Shown piece by piece: positions 24,039 through 59,648 of a stretch of 64,000 nt of DNA. Source of the DNA: Eledone cirrhosa (Eukaryota); the NCBI GenBank assembly GCA_964016885.1, contig OZ024742.1, positions 301,258,001-301,322,000 of the forward strand, read 5' to 3'. Below the pieces are notes generated by a model. It searched no databases, was not told the origin of the DNA, and was given only the letters and a program-made list of their open reading frames with translations. A program made the position numbers and the translations under genes. Every line of letters begins with the position of its first letter. Position 1 is the first letter of the stretch.

Positions 24039-24367
24039 TGACTATCAACAGGGCTTTTTCTTTTTGTTGTTATTGCTGTCAACGTCTATTGTAATTAATT
24101 TTGTTGTTTACAACGATACTGAAATTTGGTGACATCCGTGTATATATAAACACATCTTCCCATACTTACACACCACACTACACTCACACACACACACACT
24201 TATATATAAACACATACACATTTACACACGCACACTCGTGTACACACATTCATATATAAACACCCATCCACAAACAACAGACATATACACACACATACCA
24301 CTAAGCACTAAGAATACACAGACTAAAACACACATATACGGTCGCACCCATGCACGCCAAACACACA

Positions 24368-24455
<88 letters not shown>

Positions 24456-24629
24456 CATTGGTTATTCACGGATCCCAAATTATAGGGGGTGGGGTGGAAT
24501 AAACGAGGGGTCGGTGGGGTGGACATTTGCTGAAGTTCTTATTGTCTATCGTAGTTATTTTTGTTGTTTACAAAGATACCAAAGATACGGAAATTTGGAG
24601 ACATCCGTGTATACACGAATACATCTTCC

Positions 24630-25962
24630 CAATCTCACACACCACACATACACTCACACTCACACTCACACACCACACATACACTCACACTCACACACCA
24701 CACATACACTCACACTCACACACCACACATACACTCACACACACCACACATACACTCACACTCACACACCACACATACACTCACACACACCACACACACA
24801 CTCACACTCACACAACACACATACACTCACACCACACATACACTCATACACACACACCACACATACACACTCACACACCACACATACACTCACACACCAC
24901 ACATACACTCACACTCACACACCACACATACACTCACACTCACACACCACACATACACGCACACACACCACACATACACTCACACTCACACACCACACAT
25001 ACACTCACACTCACACATACACTCACACACCACACATACACTCACACTCACACATACACTCACACTCACACACCACACATACACACTCACACACCACACA
25101 TACACTCACACACCACACATACACTCACACACCACACATACACTCACACACTCACACATACACTCACACACTCACACACCACACATACACTCACCACACA
25201 TACACTCACACACCACACATACACTCACACTCACACACCACACATACACTCACACACCACACATACACTCACACACCACACATGCACTCACACGCCACAC
25301 ATACACACTCACACACCACACATACACTCACACACCACACATACACTCACACTCACACACCACACATACACTCACACGCCACACATACACTCACCACACA
25401 TACACTCACACTCACACACCACACATACACTCACACACCACACATACACTCACACACCACACATGCACTCACACGCCACACATACACACTCACACACCAC
25501 ACATACACTCACACACCACACATACACTCACACTCACACACCACACATACACTCACACTCACACACCACACATACACTCACACTCAGACACCACACATAC
25601 ACTTACACACCACACATACACTCACACACCACACATACACTCACACACCACACATGCACTCACACGCCACACATACACACTCACACACCACACATACACT
25701 CACACACCACACATACACTCACACTCACACACCACACATACACTCACACTCACACACCACACATACACTCACACTCACACACCACACTCACACCACACAT
25801 ACACTCATACACACACATCACACATACACACTCACACACCACACATACACTCACACACCACACATACACTCACACTCACACACCACACTCACACCACACA
25901 TACACTCACACACCACACATACACTCACACTCACACACCACACATACACTCATACACACACA
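24630..25962. repeat. CA-rich compound minisatellite (cacaccacacatacactca)n
   Basis: Direct; the His/Thr ORFs are artefacts of the repeat. Confidence 0.9.
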
Positions 25963-25980
25963 CTTATATATAAGTACATA

Positions 25981-26167
25981 TTGGATTGGCAGTACCGGTA
26001 GAGAGTCAGACACCGTGCTTTGCAGCATAGAGTTATGACCCTTTACGTTCTGAGTTCAAATGCCGCCGAGGTTAACTTTGCCTTTCATCCTTAATGCGTC
26101 GATAAAATAAAGTACCAGTAATTCACTGAGATAATTGCTGGCCTTGTGCCAAAAGTAGAAACAATTA
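25981..26167 (+). mobile_element. SINE S1
   Basis: A/B boxes, core, tail. Confidence 0.8.
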
Positions 26168-26642
26168 TCAAATACCAATCAAGATATAAAAAAAAACTCC
26201 GATATGCCATAAAGATGTACATAAATTGTGTGGCATATACAAATAGATGTGTGTTTTGGTAGTTTTATGGGGGGGGGGGGGGGCATGGCCCCTTGTCCCC
26301 CCCCCCCCCTCCCTCCCCATTTCACAACCTCTGTAACATGTGGACAAATACGTATATATGTATATAGATGTATATTGATATATATAAGAAAGAAAAGGTA
26401 CGTGTGTATATATATGTATGTGTATATGTATGTGTGTACATATATGTGTGTATATGTATGTGTGTATATGTATGTGTATATATATATGTATATGTGTATA
26501 TGTATGTGTGTACATATATATGTGTCCATGTGAGAGAGAAATACTGTCATTAATCAGTTGACGTCAGTTATCAACATACATTAATTTATAGGCTGTTATA
26601 TTTTACCCTACCATTTCAACTGTTCTTATCAACCTTACTTCT

Positions 26643-26723
26643 ATGACCATGTCTAATCAGGGAGGGACAGAAACACTGGACCTAGCTAATCATTCTTCAC
26701 CTTCTTCTCCGGCCACACCACAG
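26643..26723 (+). CDS. SLC16: Predicted first coding exon of SLC16 transporter (MTMSNQGGTETLDLANHSSPSSPATPQ)
   Basis: ATG, 27 codons, CAG|GTCAGT donor in phase 0, matching the ATG-less phase-0 exon at 34477. Confidence 0.6.
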
Positions 26724-29700
26724 GTCAGTACAACACATCTATTTCACCTCTTCTCCGGCCACACCACAGGTCAGTACAACACATCACTTTCACCTCTTCT
26801 CCGGCCACACCACAGGTCAGTACAACACATCTATTTCACCCCTTCTCCGGCCACACCACAGGTCAGTACAACACATCTATTTCACCTCTTCTCCGGCCAC
26901 ACCACAGGTCAGTACAACACTTCTCTTTCACCTCTTCTCCGGCCACACCACAGGTCAGTACAACACTTCTCTTTCACCTCTTCTCCGGCCACACTACAGG
27001 TCAGTACAACACTTCTCTTTCACCTCTTCTCCGGCCACACCACAGGTCAGTACAACACTTCTCTTTCACCTCTTCTCCGGCCACACTACAGGTCAGTACA
27101 ACACTTCTCTTTCACCTCTTCTCCGGCCACACCACAGGTCAGTACAACACTTCTCTTTCACCTCTTCTCCGGCCACACTACAGGTCAGTACAACACTTCT
27201 CTTTCACCTCTTCTCCGGCCACACTACAGGTCAGTACAACACATCTATTTCACCTCTTCTCCGGCCACACCACAGGTCAGTACAACACATCTATTTCACC
27301 TCTTTTCCGGTCACACTACAGGTCAGTACAACACATCTATTTCACCCCTTTTCCGGCCACACTACAGGTCAGTACAACACATCTATTTCACCTCTTCCCC
27401 GGCCACACCACAGGTCAGTACACATCTCTTTCACCTCTTCCCCGGCCACACCACAGGTCAGTACACATCACTTTCACCTCTTCTCCGGCCACACCACAGG
27501 TCAGTACAACACTTCTCTTTCACCTCTTCTCCGGCCACACCACAGGTCAGTACACATCACTTTCACCTCTTCTCCGGCCACACCACAGGTCAGTACAACA
27601 CTTCTCTTTCACCTCTTCTCCGGCCACACTACAGGTCAGTACACATCTCTTTCACCTCTTCCCCGGCCACACCACAGGTCAGTACACATCACTTTCACCT
27701 CTTCTCCGGCCACACCACAGGTCAGTACAACACTTCTCTTTCACCTCTTCTCCGGCCACACCACAGGTCAGTACACATCTCTTTCACCTCTTCCCCGGCC
27801 ACACCACAGGTCAGTACACATCACTTTCACCTCTTCTCCGGCCACACCACAGGTCAGTACAACACTTCTCTTTCACCTCTTCTCCGGCCACACCACAGGT
27901 CAGTACACATCACTTTCACCTCTTCTCCGGCCACACCACAGGTCAGTACAACACTTCTCTTTCACCTCTTCTCCGGCCACACTACAGGTCAGTACACATC
28001 TCTTTCACCTCTTCCCCGGCCACACCACAGGTCAGTACACATCACTTTCACCTCTTCTCCGGCCACACCACAGGTCAGTACAACACTTCTCTTTCACCTC
28101 TTCTCCGGCCACACCACAGGTCAGTACAACACTTCTCTTTCACCTCTTCCCCGGCCACACCACAGGTCAGTACACATCACTTTCACCTCTTCTCCGGCCA
28201 CACCACAGGTCAGTACAACACTTCTCTTTCACCTCTTCCCCGGCCACACCACAGGTCAGTACAACACTTCTCTTTCACCTCTTCTCCGGCCACACCACAG
28301 GTCAGTACAACACTTCTCTTTCACCTCTTCCCCGGCCACACCACAGGTCAGTACACATCACTTTCACCTCTTCTCCGGCCACACCACAGGTCAGTACAAC
28401 ACTTCTCTTTCACCTCTTCCCCGGCCACACCACAGGTCAGTACACATCACTTTCACCTCTTCTCCGGCCACACCACAGGTCAGTACAACACTTCTCTTTC
28501 ACCTCTTCTCCGGCCACACCACAGGTCAGTACACATCACTTTCACCTCTTCTCCGGCCACACCACAGGTCAGTACAACACTTCTCTTTCACCTCTTCCCC
28601 GGCCACACTACAGGTCAGTACACATCACTTTCACCTCTTCTCCGGCCACACCACAGGTCAGTACAACACTTCTCTTTCACCTCTTCCCCGGCCACACCAC
28701 AGGTCAGTACACATCACTTTCACCTCTTCTCCGGCCACACCACAGGTCAGTACAACACTTCTCTTTCACCTCTTCTCCGGCCACACCACAGGTCAGTACA
28801 CATCACTTTCACCTCTTCTCCGGCCACACCACAGGTCAGTACAACACTTCTCTTTCACCTCTTCTCCGGCCACACCACAGGTCAGTACACATCACTTTCA
28901 CCTCTTCTCCGGCCACACCACAGGTCAGTACAACACATCTCTTTCACCTCTTCTCCGGTCACACCACAGGTCAGTACACATCTATTTCACCTCTTCCCCG
29001 GCCACACCACAGGTCAGTACACATCACTTTCACCTCTTCTCCGGCCACACCACAGGTCAGTACACATCTATTTCACCTCTTCCCCGGCCACACCACAGGT
29101 CAGTACACATCTCTTTCACCTCTTCTCCGGTCACACCACAGGTCAGTACAACACATCTATTTCACCCCTTCTCCGGCCACACTACAGGTCAGTACAACAC
29201 ATTTCTTTCACCTCTTCTCCGGTCACACCACAGGTCAGTACACATCACTTTCACCTCTTCCCCGGCCACACTACAGGTCAGTACAACACATCTATTTCAC
29301 CTCTTCTCCGGCCACACCACAGGTCAGTACACATCTATTTCACCTCTTCTCCGGCCACACCACAGGTCAGTACACATCTATTTCACCTCTTCTCCGGCCA
29401 CACCACAGGTCAGTACAACACATCTATTTCACCTCTTCTCCGGCCACACCATAGGTCAGTACACATCTATTTCACCCCTTCTCCGGCCACACCACAGGTC
29501 AGTACACATCTTTCACCTCTTCCCCGGCCACATCACAGGTCAGTACACATCTTTCACCTCTTCCCCGGCCACACCACAGGTCAGTACAATACTTCTCTTT
29601 CACTTCTCTGGCCACACCACAGGTCAGTACAACACATCTCTTTCACCTCTTCCCCGGCCACACCACAGGTCAGTACAACACTTCTCTTTCACTTCTCCGG

Positions 29701-29750
29701 CCACACCACAGGTCAGTACACATCTCTTTCATCTCTTCTCCGGCCACACA
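26695..29750 (+). repeat. Satellite of 46/43-bp units (ttcacctcttctccggccacaccacag|gtcagtac[aac]acatctat), ~65-70 copies
   Basis: Direct; the first unit is the end of predicted exon 1. Confidence 0.95.
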
Positions 29751-29786
29751 TATATAATGATGAAAGTTATTTTTAAAAAGGTTTAA

Positions 29787-34476: not shown

Positions 34477-34768
34477 ATTGTTTCCACGGTAACTCTGAAT
34501 GGCATAGAAAAAGATGGCAACCTTAATGAAAAACTTCCCGAGAAGAAGACTGATAAATCCTCAACAGAGAGCAACACAGATTTTAAACCCCCAGATGGTG
34601 GTTGGGGATGGGTGGTTATGATTGCTTCTATGGTATTGATTCTTCTTACCGATGGTATTGCTTTCTCCGTTGGTACCATATACCCAACAATCCGAGATGA
34701 TTTCAATTCAGAAAGTACAAAAGCTTCTCTCATCAGTGCTCTGATCAATGCTTTCAGCCTCCTCACAG
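34477..34768 (+). CDS. SLC16: SLC16 monocarboxylate transporter exon 2
   Basis: tttcag acceptor; KPPDGGWGWVV signature of SLC16 TM1; G|GTTAGA donor, phase 1. Confidence 0.92.
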
Positions 34769-35704: not shown

Positions 35705-35927
35705 TTTATTGTTATAAAGATACGGTCTTCATTCATGTGTAAATACCAACAGCTAGAATATTATAAAGATCCAGAGTTCATTCATGTGTAAATACTAACA
35801 GTTACAATATAATGATCCAGAGTTCATTCATGTGTAAATACTAACAGCTACAATATTATAAAGGTCCAGTGTTCATTCATGTGTAAATACTAACCACAAC
35901 AATGTTTTATATCTAACAGGTCCAGTG
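35705..35927 (+). repeat. Tandem ~45-49-bp repeat containing TACTAAC and AGGTCCAGTG, ending in the exon-3 acceptor
   Basis: ttcattcatgtgtaaatactaac... four times. Confidence 0.8.
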
Positions 35928-36063
35928 GCAAGTGTTCTCGCAGATTCTTATGGCCACCGTCTTGTTGTCATATCAGGTAGTCTTTTGTCCGGCATTGCTT
36001 TTGTTGCTGCAAGTTTCTCACCAAACATTGACGTCGCCATAATAACTTATGGCTTCTTAGCTG
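35920..36063 (+). CDS. SLC16: SLC16 exon 3
   Basis: ctaacag acceptor; GPVASVLADSYGHRLVVISG...TYGFLAG; G|GTGAGT donor. Confidence 0.92.
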
Positions 36064-36205: not shown

Positions 36206-36241
<36 letters not shown>

Positions 36242-36556
36242 CGACAATAACGATGATGATGGCGATGACGACGATGACGACGATGATGATGATGATGGTG
36301 ATGATGACGGTGACAATGATCACAGTGACGACGATGACGTTGATGATTATAATGATAGCGATGACAATGATGACGATGACAACGATGATAATAATAATGA
36401 TAGCGATGACAATGATGACGATGACGACGATGATGGTAACGATGACGACGATGACGACGATGATGATGATGTCGATGATGATGATGATGATGATGACGAT
36501 GATGGCGATGACAACAACGAGGACGATGACAACAATGATGATGATGGTGATGATGT
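36145..36556. repeat. (GAT/GAC)n trinucleotide tract, intronic
   Basis: Direct. Confidence 0.9.
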
Positions 36557-36678: not shown

Positions 36679-37038
36679 GAACTGGTTTTTCCTTGATGTA
36701 TGTCAGCAGCATTGTTGTAGTTGGTCTTTACTTTGAAAAACGTCGGCCCCTGGCTATTGGTATTGCATCTTCTGGTTCCGGCATTGGTATATTCTTAATC
36801 TCAGCTATCACAGGAACTTTGCTCAATATCATATCATGGCGAACTGTTTCACTAATAGAAGGAGCCCTTATGATTTTAGGGATTCTATCTGGTTTGACAC
36901 TTCGACCCCTTCCTCGACCAAATGAAAGCAAAGAAAAAATATCCAAGACAAAATTACTTATGAAACGACTAGACATAACGTTATTCAGACTTCCTGCTTA
37001 CAACACAATTTGTGTAGTTTTTATTGTTGCAACAATTG
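36679..37038 (+). CDS. SLC16: SLC16 exon 4
   Basis: tttcatag acceptor; YFEKRRPLAIGIASSGSGIG motif; G|GTAAGT donor. Confidence 0.93.
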
Positions 37039-45883: not shown

Positions 45884-48800
45884 ATGCCACTGAAAAGAAA
45901 GAGTACCCTTAGCCGTAGGAAAACATCGTCTGTTGTTTCAAAAAAGAGGTGATTGAATGAGCAGTCTACGGATGCCAGACTGCATTTTTGGCTACAAACC
46001 CCTGTTACTTCGCTTTCAAACTTAAGTACCCCTAGCACAGCCAAACCCAGTGCCTCTCTATCTACGGTTACCGCTTCGAATCGTGCCATTCGTAATTGTC
46101 GGAATGCAGTTGCAACAGCCGCCTCTAGGGCAGCAGAGAGTGACAGCCAAAGAGCTCTTCGTAGGGCTAGGAATGCTGCAAGGGCGTCCGAAACTAAACA
46201 GCAAACAGCCACCAGACGGTCAAAGAACGCTGCTTCAACCGCCGCCTCCCGTGCCGCAGAAACCGACCAGGAGACAGCCATCCGAAGGTCCAAGGACTCC
46301 GCCTCCAAGGCAGCTGCCAGAGCATCCCAGACCGAGATACAGACAGCCATCCGAAGGGCCAAGTACTCCGCCTCCACCGCAGCTGCCAGAGCATCCCAGA
46401 CCGAGATACAGACAGCCATACGAAGGTCCCAGAACGCTGTATCCACCGCCGCCTCCCGTGCCGCAGAACATCAAACAGCCCGCCGTGCTCGGTTGGACAC
46501 AAACAACGCACTAAGAGACACCGCCAGAGGAACAACGAGTCCACATGAGTCATTTTGGCTTATGAAGGCTTTCAACTACGATCCAACAGTAAAATACTCC
46601 GACTGTACGGACATTCAACTAGGCAGGATGTATGTCATATGCCAATTCTGTGGTGCAGAGAAGTGGCCCGGAGAACCACCTGGCCTGTGCTGCTCTAATG
46701 GGAAGGTTTCACTTCCTCCTTTGGCGGCCCCTCCAGAACCTTTGCGAGAACTTAGCGGAGAGACCTCTACGTCAACAGACTTCCTTGGCAACATAAGGAA
46801 ATACAACTGCGCCTTCCAGATGACTTCGTTCGGGGCCAAAATTTTCAGAGAAAGCGGGTGGATGCCAACCTTTAAGGTTCAGGGCCAGGTTTACCACTAT
46901 GTCGGTCCTCTACAGCCTGCGCCGTCAGCGCAACCCGCCTTCCTGCAAATTTACTTCATAGCTGACTACAACAAGCAGGCTGACATGCGCTCATCTGTCA
47001 TCCCAGCTGATGGCACTAGAGAGAACCTGGACAGAGACGTCCTCCTTGCGCTGCAGCAAATGCTACACTCCGAAAACAGCTACGTGCAGAGCTTCAAGTA
47101 CGCCTTGGAGACTACTGACCTGCCTAACTTCAACATTGTCATCGATACCGACAAAAGACCATCCGGAGAACACGCCCGTCGATTCAACGCGCCCGCGTGC
47201 AACGAGGTGGCAGTCGTCCTTCACGGAGACCAGCACAACCCCCGGGATATCGTCATATCCAACCGTGCAACTGGCCTCCACAGAATACGCGAAACACACC
47301 GATCCTACGACAGCCTCCAATACCCTCTACTTTTCCCCCGCGGCGAGGAAGGCTACCACTTCAAGACTCCACACTGCCAGTCAAACCAGCCCTCCGTTGC
47401 TGCCGCCAAAACCGTGTCCTGCAAGGAATTTTACGCATACCGACTCATGCCTCGGAGAAACTGTTTCAACAGTTTGCACATATCGCAGGACCTACTGAAC
47501 CAATTTTCGGTGGATATGGCAGCAAAGATGGAGTCAGAACGACTGGCCTTCATTCGAACCCACCAGCAGCAACTGCGTAGCGAAAGCTACATACACCTGC
47601 GCGACGGCTTCACCAACGACGGGGATCCCCGAAACATTGGCAAGGTCTGCATCCTGCCTTCTACCTTCACTGGAGGACCTCGGTGCATGCACTAGAGGAC
47701 TCAGGACGCCATGACCTATGTGCGGGCCTACGGCTGTCCTGACCTCTTCACCACCTTCACGTGCAACCCGAAGGCGGATGAGATCACCCGAGAACTCCTT
47801 CCAGGGCAGTCATACCACCACCGCCTTGACCTCATAGCGAGGGCTTTCGAGAGGAACATACAGAAAATGAAGGCATGTTGTGCAAAAGCTAACATCTTCG
47901 GCCCTGCTAGATGCCATACGTACACCGTAGAATGGCAGAAACGGGGCCTGCCTCACATTCATCTGTTACTGTGGCTGCAGAACAAGATCAACTCCAACGA
48001 CATCGACAAATTCATCTGCGCAGACATCCCCAACCCTGCCACCGACAAAGAACTCTTCGACGTCGTCACGACTTCCATGATACACGGACCCTGTTATCCG
48101 GGTTCTAACCATTCGTGTCAGAAAGACGGGATCTGTAGTAAGAGGTACCCTAGGAAATTTGTTTCAGAGACCCAGACAGGGCACGACGGCTATCCCCTGT
48201 ACAGGCGCCGGTCGCCTGAAGACGGTGGTTTTACTGCCATTGTAAGGGGCAAGCAAGTCGACAATCGATGGGTGGTCCCCTATTGTCCACTTCTCACTTC
48301 GACGTTCCAAGCCCACATTAATGTGGAATTCTGTAGCTCAGTTAAATCGATTAAATATGTTTGCAAGTACGTCAACAAGGGCTGCGATTCCACCGCATTC
48401 GCCCTCCAGTCCGACCGGGACGAGGTCAGTGAGTACCTATCGGCCCGGTACATAAGTACAAACGAAGCGTTTTGGCGAATTTTTGGTTTTTCTATCCATG
48501 AAAGGTACCCCAAAATCACAAACCTGGCGGTCCACTTAGAGAACGGACAGCGGGTTTACTTTACGGCCACAAATGCTGCTCAAGTTGCGGCTAACCCCAA
48601 AGAAACCACGTTAACTGCTTTCTTTAAGCTCTGTCACGTAGACGCTTTTGCGAGAACTCTAATTTACCTTCAGGTGCCGTCCTACTTCACTTGGCGCCGC
48701 AATAGCTGGGTACGGCGAAAAACTGGTAAGGCAGTTGAATCGCATCCGGGAGTTAAATTTTCTGACTGCCTCGGTAGAGTCTACACGGTTCCCCCAACCC

Positions 48801-50694
48801 AACCTGAGTGCTTTCACCTGCGCATTCTTCTGCACGAGGTCAAGGGGCCGCAAGGTTTCTTTGACTTAAAAACAGTAAACGGGGAACTTTGCAACACTTT
48901 TCGAGAAGCCTGCTTTAGGCTTGGTCTCTTGGAAGATGATTCTCAATGGGACTCGACCCTCGCCGATGGTGCTCTGCTGAAATCCCCACAGAAATTAAGG
49001 GAACTGTTTGCCTTTTTGCTGCACAATTGTGGCTTAGCTAACCCTTCAGCCCTTTGGCTGAAGTACAGGGACGATTTGTGCGAGGACTTCCTCCGCACAG
49101 TCAAACGGCAAAATCCGTCTTTAGAAGTGGGGTTCACCGAAATCATTTACAATCAAGGGCTAATTTCCATCCAAGAAGAGCTCCTTCAACTAGGGGGGAA
49201 TGACTTGCCAACATACGGCTTGCCAGCCGCCAGCAGGCAAAATGTTAGTGTGCTGGGTCCAGATATTCTGTTGGAGACATCTTACGATGTCGCCATGTTG
49301 ACAACTTTCCTAGATGAAAATGAACGTAAGCTTCTTCCCGAGCAAAGGGTTGCTTATGAGACTGTCGTTGACAGTGCACTGGGTGGATTAGGTTGTGTCT
49401 TCTTTCTTGATGCCTCTGGCGGTACAGGCAAAACCTTCGTTACCTCCCTCATTTTGGCGCGTCTTCGACAACAAAAAATGATTGCCCCTGCGGTCGCCTC
49501 ATCGAGGATCGCCGCTACCTTGCTGCCTGGAGGGAAGACAGCTCGTGCTGCCTTTAAGCTTCCGTTGGACCTCGCACGAACTAATACGCCGACGTGCAAC
49601 ATTAGCAAGCACTCCGACAAAGCGGCACTTCTCGCAAAATGTTGCCTCATTGTGTGTGACGAATGCACCATGGCACATAAGGGTGCTCTGGAGGCATTAG
49701 ATAGGAGTTTAAAAGATATCAGGAACTCCTCGGCACCCTTGGGTGGCGTGACTTTACTGCTTTCGGGTGACTTCAGGCAAACGCTGCCTGTTATCCCCAA
49801 AGGGACAAGGGCTGATGAAGTCCGCGCATGCCTGAAGTCGTCGACGCTTTGGCCTATCGTTCGGACACTCCGCCTGAGCGTTAACATGCGGGCGCAGTTG
49901 CTCGGGGACAGCACGTCTGCTGAATTCGGCCAGGCCATCCTAGCTATAGGGGAAGGCCGACTTCCTTCCAACGAAAAGGGTGAGGTGTCGCTGGCATCTG
50001 TCAGTAATACAGTTGACAGTCCTCAGGCCCTTTTAGAAGCTGTTTTTCCAAACCTACAGGTTAACTACACTAACTTAGATTGGCTTAGTTCAAGAGCCAT
50101 CCTAGCCCCCAAAAACTCTGCTGTTAATGCTCTCAACGAAGAGCTACTCGGCAAGATTCCAGCCTAAGAGAAAATTTTTAAGTCTATAGACCGCGTCACC
50201 GATCCACAGGAGGCGACGGATTACCCAGTAGAGTTTTTGAATAGCCTTGACCCCCCAGGTCTCCCACCCCACATCCTGAAGCTCAAGGTCGGCAGTCCGA
50301 TTGTGCTTATGCGTAACATGCGCCCCTCAAAACAGTGCAACGACACTCGAATGGTAGTCAAATCAATGACGAACCATCTCATTGAAGCAACCATTTTAAC
50401 TGGTTGTGGTAAAGGTGAGAGCGTCATGATCCCAAGGCTAAGCATCCAACCTTCGACCACGGACATCCCGATAGGTTTAGGCGACATCAGTTTCCCGTAA
50501 GGCCCTGCTTCGCGATCATCATAAACAAATCTCAGGGTCAAACTTTGTCCGTGGCGGGCATTCATCTAAAAGAGCCCTGCTTTGCTCATGGTCAACTTTA
50601 TGTTGCCTGCTCGCGAGTTGGGAGTAAGGACTCCCTTTTTTCATACACACCCAACGGTATGACCCGCAACATAGTCTACAAAGAGGTCCTGTAA
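45884..50694 (+). pseudogene. Helitron Rep (HUH) - PIF1 helicase; three in-frame stops (45950, 47693, 50165) and a frameshift near 50480
   Basis: FTTFTCNP, VEWQKRGLPHIH, KYVCKYVNKG; GGTGKT, DECTM, GDFRQ, NKSQGQ, HGQLYVACSR; zinc finger CQFC...CC. Confidence 0.93.
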
Positions 50695-50781
50695 CGTGCA
50701 TTACCACTGAGATGATTTAACACAAAAAGAGTTTATATATATACAAACACATACACACACTCACATACAGATATATATATA

Positions 50782-52576: not shown

Positions 52577-52849
52577 GATGTATACTTCCTTATATGTACA
52601 TACCCGATGTCGCTCAAGAACTTAACATTCAGAAAGAACAGTCTGCATTCTTACTTTCAATAACTGGCATCACAAACACAATCTCCAGAATGTTGTGTGG
52701 TTTTGTTGTTTACCGTTTCCCAATCCTCAATCCAATTCTATTACTTGCATGTATCTGTGGTATTGGAGGAGTATTATCTTTCTTCGTCTTCCTCTACACC
52801 AGTTATGCCAGTCTGGCTATCTACGCTGCTATAGTAGGCTTCGTTTACG
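52577..52849 (+). CDS. SLC16: SLC16 exon 5
   Basis: tttcag acceptor; GCILPYMYIPDVA...AFLLSITGITNTISR; G|GTATGT donor. Confidence 0.92.
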
Positions 52850-57212: not shown

Positions 57213-57382
57213 TTCTTCGTGGCCGGAGGTTTCTTATTAGCACCAACTTTCTTTTGTATTTTAACATGGTTCATAGTTCAAATGAATAAGCGTGGAGCTT
57301 ATTCTGTAGCAAAAGCAAATAAAAAGACGAAACGGAATATGGAAATTTCAAGTATTTCACAGAATATACTCATCTATCAGAA
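57213..57382 (+). pseudogene. Partial duplicate of SLC16 last exon lying upstream of exon 6
   Basis: Closely matches 59384-59553; the stop TAG reads CAG here. Confidence 0.85.
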
Positions 57383-57419
57383 TTAATAACGATTGATCAA
57401 TTTTATTTAACCTTTCCAG

Positions 57420-57545
57420 CTGCCGATGCCGCCTTGACACCATTGGTATTGATAGAAATTGTTGGTTATGATCGGTTGAACAGCTCCGTTGGTTTTATGT
57501 GTATGTTTAGAGGAATTCCTATCCTGATTGCTGGACCTATAGGAG
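57420..57545 (+). CDS. SLC16: SLC16 exon 6
   Basis: ctttccag acceptor; LTPLVLIEIVGYDRLNSSVG...GPIGG; G|GTACGT donor. Confidence 0.9.
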
Positions 57546-59345: not shown

Positions 59346-59533
59346 GTTATTTACGGGATGTGACGGGAAAATACGATGCCACCTTCTTCATGGCCGGAGG
59401 ATTCTTATTAGCATCAACTTTCTTTTGTATTTTAACATGGTTCATAGTGCGAATGAACAAGTGTGGAGCTTATTCTGTAGCAAAAGCAAGTAAAAAGACG
59501 AAACGGAATATGGAAATTGCAAGTATTTCATAG
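59346..59533 (+). CDS. SLC16: SLC16 exon 7 (last coding exon)
   Basis: tttgcag acceptor; GYLRDVTGKYDATFFMAGG...; TAG at 59531-59533. Confidence 0.92.
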
Positions 59534-59648
59534 AAAATATTCAGCTATCAAAATGTTATTATTATTTTTATAAAGTACCAGTAATGCACTGGGATAATTG
59601 CTGGCCTTGTGCCAAACAGTAGGAACAATTACTATTTTTATTATTATT

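Follow-up and report, generated by a model that had tools for sequence, protein, structure and literature searches.

A junction-spanning minisatellite with 68 copies of a splice donor in a predicted SLC16-like transporter gene of Eledone cirrhosa

Which splice donor is used by a gene that offers the same donor 68 times in a row? The question arises from a 64,000-nucleotide stretch of the genome of Eledone cirrhosa (assembly GCA_964016885.1, contig OZ024742.1, positions 301,258,001 to 301,322,000 of the forward strand; here called the window), in which the end of a short exon is repeated head to tail, together with its donor, into the following intron. The original prediction, made from the letters of the DNA alone, had treated this arrangement as unusual. 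It had read the array as a set of alternative donors, every third of which would be in frame and add a variable N-terminal tail rich in Ser, Pro, Thr and His, while the others would yield frameshifted mRNA prone to nonsense-mediated decay (NMD), so that the array might tune expression or act as a sink for U1 snRNP.

Joining seven exons with GT-AG boundaries (Table 1) gave an open frame for a protein of 487 residues, the length that had been anticipated. It shows 82% identity over the whole protein to XP_036360281.1 from Octopus sinensis and XP_052825397.1 from O. bimaculoides, both of which share its N-terminal peptide and junction. The domain MFS_1 was detected in XP_036360281.1 (E=3e-38), and exon 2 contains the N-terminal motif DGGWGW, presumably the signature of the SLC16 family. 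Judged by this domain and this motif, the gene is predicted to encode an SLC16/MCT12-like transporter. The orthologues carry the automatic name 'monocarboxylate transporter 12-like' in their source annotation, and Argonauta GAB1608390.1 is a further SLC16/monocarboxylate transporter 12-like relative. Two details of the original prediction proved correct: donor 1, at 26723, lies in phase 0, 81 nt from the ATG, and the exon at 34477 starts in phase 0 with no methionine preceding DGGWGW, behind a TTTCAG and an in-frame stop just upstream.

Table 1. Coordinates of the transporter gene and of the array at its first junction (positions in the window)
Feature	Position	Strand	Support
Coding exon 1, 27 codons from ATG (26643), ends at donor 1, phase 0	26643..26723	+	aligns to Octopus orthologue N-termini
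Donor 1, CAG|GTCAGT	26721..26729	+	junction position of orthologous proteins; 61st percentile of 173 sampled donors
Junction-spanning minisatellite	26696..29749	+	68.5 copies, 46/43/41-bp unit, 68 donor copies
Read-through frame across the array, 1047 codons, by-product of the stop-free unit	26643..29786	+	shuffle control
Coding exon 2, PPDGGWGW motif, phase-0 acceptor	34477..34768	+	82% identical to Octopus proteins
Coding exon 3	35920..36063	+	GT-AG boundaries and open joined frame
Coding exon 4	36679..37038	+	GT-AG, open joined frame
Coding exon 5	52577..52849	+	GT-AG, open joined frame
Coding exon 6	57420..57545	+	GT-AG, open joined frame
Coding exon 7 to stop codon (59531-59533)	59346..59533	+	GT-AG, open joined frame

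The original prediction had proposed a search of orthologues for the exon-1 peptide, and in three full-length Octopus proteins (XP_052825397.1, XP_036360281.1 and XP_036360282.1) the first 25 residues do align with exon 1, which has two additional residues in E. cirrhosa. In these proteins, which are computational gene models from other species and not transcripts of E. cirrhosa, the start peptide is followed at the donor-1 position directly by the exon-2 sequence, free of any tail. The alignment of exon 1 with the orthologue N-terminus scored 58, a value reached in none of 5000 shuffles, and a six-frame scan of window positions 1-34476 for an alternative first exon returned only 26643 (58 versus 34 at the best unrelated place). 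Because both the peptide and the junction match those of the orthologues, the ATG exon is taken as the true first coding exon and donor 1 as the ancestral junction. A repeat tail was found in none of six proteins from a search with exon 2 (165 candidates of 171-2000 aa; four of the six sequences and one cluster member were inspected); the cephalopod relatives P0003 and P0004 are partial at the N-terminus. None of the other five donors of the gene is repeated. Upstream of exon 1 we noted a weak acceptor at 26591 (10th percentile), so that this exon may be the first or may follow a non-coding one, and a perfect TGACGTCA palindrome at 26560-26567, 76 nt upstream of the ATG, which we take to be a CRE-like motif.

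Tandem Repeats Finder described the array with a period of 46, 90% matches and a score of 4713, and reported a period of 89 besides. It contains 68 AG|GTCAGT sites, with exon-end positions from 26723 to 29711, where 65-70 donors had been estimated; the site reads CAG|GTCAGT in 67 of them and TAG|GTCAGT in one (29454). The unit had been described accurately as well (about 27 nt of exon, CAG|GTCAGT and about 19 nt of intron), as it comprises 27 nt of exon end and the donor, with 19 or 16 nt of intron. The donors are spaced by the expected 46 bp (37 times) or 43 bp (28 times), and two 41-bp units occur besides. The 43-bp class has lost one triplet of a very short ACA repeat; losses of 2 nt are also seen, and two of the three indel types of the array are 3 nt long. 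Among 67 units there are 26 distinct sequences, the most divergent of which lie at the array ends, and the true exon 1 differs from the array units by one additional T within the shared part, 21-22 nt before the junction, and its sequence is unique beyond 28 nt. The array itself is far beyond chance. With exon 1 and two units as query, a DNA search of the animal's own genome, of a kind that repeats can escape, matched the array locus only, and an origin from a dispersed satellite or transposon was rejected because the unit was matched only here in this search, weak as it is for repeats. A sequencing run of undeclared kind (share 0.18), which may be the assembly's own sample, gave 34 short contigs over 26526-26815, all inside the repeat, none on the unique part of the exon and without joints; in these contigs, unit variants shorter by 3 nt and 41-bp units are visible.

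Head-to-tail units of 10-100 bp (here with period 46), a first unit that begins inside exon 1 and crosses what the orthologous proteins indicate to be a genuine exon-intron boundary, and a donor copied into the downstream units at 68 sites identify the array as a junction-spanning, donor-reiterating minisatellite, an already known kind to which the human F7 repeat and the amphioxus 'mirages' belong. The class was defined by Borensztajn et al. (2006, PMC1557585) as minisatellites whose first unit lies across an exon-intron boundary. The VNTR in intron 7 of human F7 consists of 5-9 copies of 37 bp with identical donors; the donors further down can function, but in experiments, which were performed in mammalian cells with 5-9 copies, splicing took the most upstream one alone, and mutation of that donor activated the next one (PMC1557585). 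Its Introduction also states that only the first donor is used in LMNB2 (100-bp unit) and in PDGF intron 4 (81-bp unit), while two downstream pseudo-sites are used constitutively in CBS intron 13 (15-20 units) and in intron 2 of the interferon-inducible gene 6-16 (IFI6; 25 pseudo-sites). For the amphioxus mirages in the Adh3 and globin genes, RT-PCR suggested no interference with regular splicing (PMC3087553); effects of repeats on splicing in general are treated in PMC10078293 and PMC2812944.

As in F7, the first unit of the Eledone array spans the boundary and the exact donor is reiterated down the intron, in copies that are intact and potentially functional. Unlike F7, with 5-9 copies and 4 nt of exon per unit, it has 68 copies with 27 nt of exon each, sits on the first coding exon and is built of a stop-free unit. 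It shares the reiterated donor and a similar unit size with CBS, 6-16, LMNB2 and PDGF, which use only the first one to three donors, but exceeds the largest of these arrays about threefold in length. Like the mirages, it is a tandem duplication at an exon boundary in an invertebrate; their units measure 10-72 bp in Adh3 and many keep their splice signals. The mirages show concerted evolution and diverge more at their ends, and in the Eledone array, too, the outermost units are the most different. In contrast to the mirages, this array belongs to another phylum and has more copies than the 3-6 of the globin gene, and length instability was shown in amphioxus. A cephalopod example of the class was not found in searches of open-access literature.

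A survey of the genome revealed that such junctions are copied elsewhere. The sample, which was not random, was built from 200 conserved exon matches: 14 of 20 matches to SLC16 paralogues (six near-identical copies were dropped), 117 of 138 to kinase (13 whole-domain single-exon hits were dropped and 8 excluded) and 69 of 72 to myosin. Donors were callable in 178 of the 200. A copy of the junction 20-mer with at least 16 of 20 identities was present within 700 nt downstream of 6 of the 178 donors; 12 permutations gave 0.25 on average, and 20-mers from the exon interior gave 1 of 178. At a threshold of at least 15 of 20, the numbers were 10, 1.3 and 2, respectively. Thus about 3% of the sampled donors have a junction copy and about 1% (n=2) an array. 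The first of these arrays, L004 (C17:42064911-42068072, minus strand), repeats a 44-bp unit 15.7 times from the exon end of another SLC16 gene over about 690 bp; the true donor there is a perfect consensus, CAG|GTAAGT, and the GT is lost in all 13 listed copies. The second, L152 (C1:322458184-322459990), is a decayed minisatellite of period 36 in an intron of a MAP-kinase-like gene; it derives from the end of the preceding exon and its donor and has three GT-bearing copies and one exact 16-nt junction copy 367 nt downstream. Short duplications of exon end and donor in 2-3 copies right behind the real donor were found at four myosin loci (L078, L172, L069, L071) and one kinase locus (L125). A donor-like site after an array at a further myosin locus (L179) was rejected as a junction array; the array there is an ordinary intronic one, with the true exon further upstream.

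Of the intron bases 50-400 nt from the donor, 12-14% lie in complex minisatellites, compared with 2% of the first ten and less than 1% of the exon ends. With arrays over so much of the near-donor intron, now and then one would be seeded on a junction, and this cover together with the sampled junction copies makes junction-seeded repeats a recurring by-product of a repeat-rich genome. The arrangement is therefore less unusual than the original prediction had assumed, being a member of a named class that recurs in the same genome. The survey suggests that this genome holds many junction-copy loci, enough for a genome-wide test of the donor rule. As none of the 178 sampled donors matches the present array for intact donors, it is the extreme of the sample.

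The donors of the array are of ordinary strength. Scored with a matrix from 173 sampled donors, which were called with a generic consensus so that the matrix leans to consensus, the array 9-mer falls at the 61st percentile and the other donors of the gene between the 47th and the 75th. The C at +3 had been held to make each donor suboptimal; it is indeed rare (4 of the 173), but the donor as a whole is average. Within the array, one of the nine donor columns is variable against 13 of the 37 others (Fisher p=0.16), so conservation of the donors is not significant and gives no sign of selective upkeep. The mean unpaired probability ranged from 0.28 to 0.39 for donors 1-8; as donor 1 has no special exposure in folding, an RNA structure that hides the later donors was rejected.

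We consider it probable that a chance duplication spanning the junction was expanded, that donor 1 is used while nearly all of the 67 copies are ignored, and that the gene makes its normal transporter of 487 residues. A tandem duplication across the junction of exon 1 and intron 1 would have been enlarged by slippage or unequal exchange, and if the first copy kept the exon end intact, the change would have been nearly neutral. By analogy with human F7 and amphioxus, the spliceosome would take donor 1 and pass over almost all copies behind it, and on this analogy first-donor dominance is likely. Any minor leakage to donors 2-3 would give frameshifted mRNA, presumably cleared by NMD. Some observations speak against this account: CBS and IFI6, as summarised in the Introduction of PMC1557585, use two downstream pseudo-sites; stop-free units are infrequent among sampled minisatellites (4 of 35); and 67 intact copies are kept here, whereas all 13 listed copies of L004 are dead, a rarer state that could hint at tolerance or use. 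As read, the array adds a large case to a class already described from humans and amphioxus and matters little, except that it offers a natural test of whether the rule that the most upstream donor wins, established in mammalian cells with 5-9 copies, extends to ten times as many.

The best surviving alternative, although rather unlikely, is that array length tunes expression: the downstream donors would be used to a sizeable extent, two thirds of the products would be out of frame and lost to NMD, and a longer allele would give less transporter. Counted from the ATG, phases 0, 1 and 2 are taken by 23, 23 and 22 donors. The expected rule that every third donor is in frame holds through donor 61 and is broken beyond by the two 41-bp units. 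Splicing from any of the 45 out-of-frame donors among the 68 would run into a stop within exon 2, 48 or 14 nt from its start and ahead of five further junctions. A premature stop upstream of exon junctions makes an mRNA a substrate of decay, and because the stop precedes five junctions, such mRNA would be an NMD substrate, as the original prediction had foreseen. The copies are also identical to donor 1 bar one, and a human UPF3A VNTR is reportedly subject to length-dependent donor use. The downstream sites of CBS and IFI6 (PMC1557585, Introduction) favour this alternative too. However, identical downstream donors did not compete in the F7 experiments (PMC1557585), and the Eledone donors lack a sign of selective upkeep. 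Tuning through downstream donors is hence possible but found no support, F7, the closest tested case, using the most upstream donor only.

A fuller version, in which donor 1 loses its dominance to a graded ladder of donors, the fraction of mRNA that decays depends on array length and each third donor adds a longer Ser/Thr/Pro/His-rich N-terminal tail, we regard as unlikely. Were such a ladder in use, the dose or isoform of the transporter would be set by an array length that mutates fast, and the contrast with L004 would mean that cephalopod genomes purge arrays of strong donors and keep or use those of medium strength.

Recursive splicing, with each CAG|GT acting also as an acceptor so that the array is trimmed from donor 1, the donor is regenerated and a normal mRNA results, is very improbable. 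Every unit has the AG|GT and a pyrimidine-rich run before it, and when scored as acceptors these sites outrank 82% of the remaining 218 AGs in intron 1. Set against 168 true acceptors from the sample, however, their median falls at the 5th percentile, and the ten bases that precede the CAG are not rich in T.

That in-frame donors yield functional isoforms with a variable Ser/Thr/Pro/His-rich cytoplasmic N-tail is hardly to be expected. The frame opened by the ATG does continue for the predicted 1047 codons, to a stop at 29784, and 23 of the 68 donors are in it; its translation consists to 53% of S, T, P and H, and with a maximal hydropathy of 0.85 over 19 residues it has no membrane-length hydrophobic stretch and could sit in the cytoplasm. 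Two of the three indel types, moreover, are of 3 nt. Against these points, the first in-frame alternative is donor 4, behind two nearer donors, and the open frame is what chance would provide. Base shuffles gave a unit free of stops in all frames in 25% of cases and dinucleotide shuffles in 70-82%, so that the long open frame needs no selection; among sampled 30-60-bp minisatellites, 4 of 35 lack a stop on the sense strand, a lower base rate than in the shuffles. The stop-free state is uncommon but not improbable. Nine of the 138 possible substitutions create a stop triplet, and one has arisen (29452, outside the ATG frame).

As the unit length is 1 mod 3, every base is read in all three frames. 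Units of 46, 43 and 41 bp are not multiples of three, nor is the frame kept beyond chance, as would mark a coding VNTR. Identical units recur at lag 2 in 17 of 65 cases, at lag 8 in 16 of 59 and at lag 3 in 9 of 64; the excess at lags 2 and 8 over lag 3 agrees with duplication in blocks rather than with a coding repeat of three units, and variants following a three-unit pattern were not seen. By shuffles and lag analysis alike, neither the open frame nor the 1-mod-3 unit lengths show a sign of selection. Annotated relatives have no tail, and the repeat peptide is absent from the three full-length Octopus proteins. The variable tail of the original prediction therefore found no support. The only Pfam hit on the read-through frame, LPD29, was rejected, as 0 stretches pass alone and the hit is an artefact of summing over repeats. 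In an upstream CA-rich array at window positions 24133-26035, each of the three frames is open over 470-620 codons, so long ORFs arise easily from repeats here.

The proposed sink for U1 snRNP was rejected, because 68 sites on a single gene's nascent transcript would be negligible against the U1 pool.

Further observations concern the rest of the gene and its family. The (GAT)n tract at 36206-36555 in intron 3 seems to predate the divergence of the two lineages, because the Octopus gene model P0003, which reads through intron 3, shows a run of poly-Asp at its position. Intron 4 holds a Helitron-like element (45953-50700) with Helitron_like_N and PIF1 helicase domains, its frame interrupted by stops. 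In intron 5, just before exon 6, about 180 bp (57213-57394) closely copy positions 59384-59566, the 3' portion of the last coding exon, without an acceptor part of their own. Elsewhere in the genome, a tandem cluster at C17:36.54-36.73 Mb comprises 12 or more SLC16-like exon matches, which lie on both strands.
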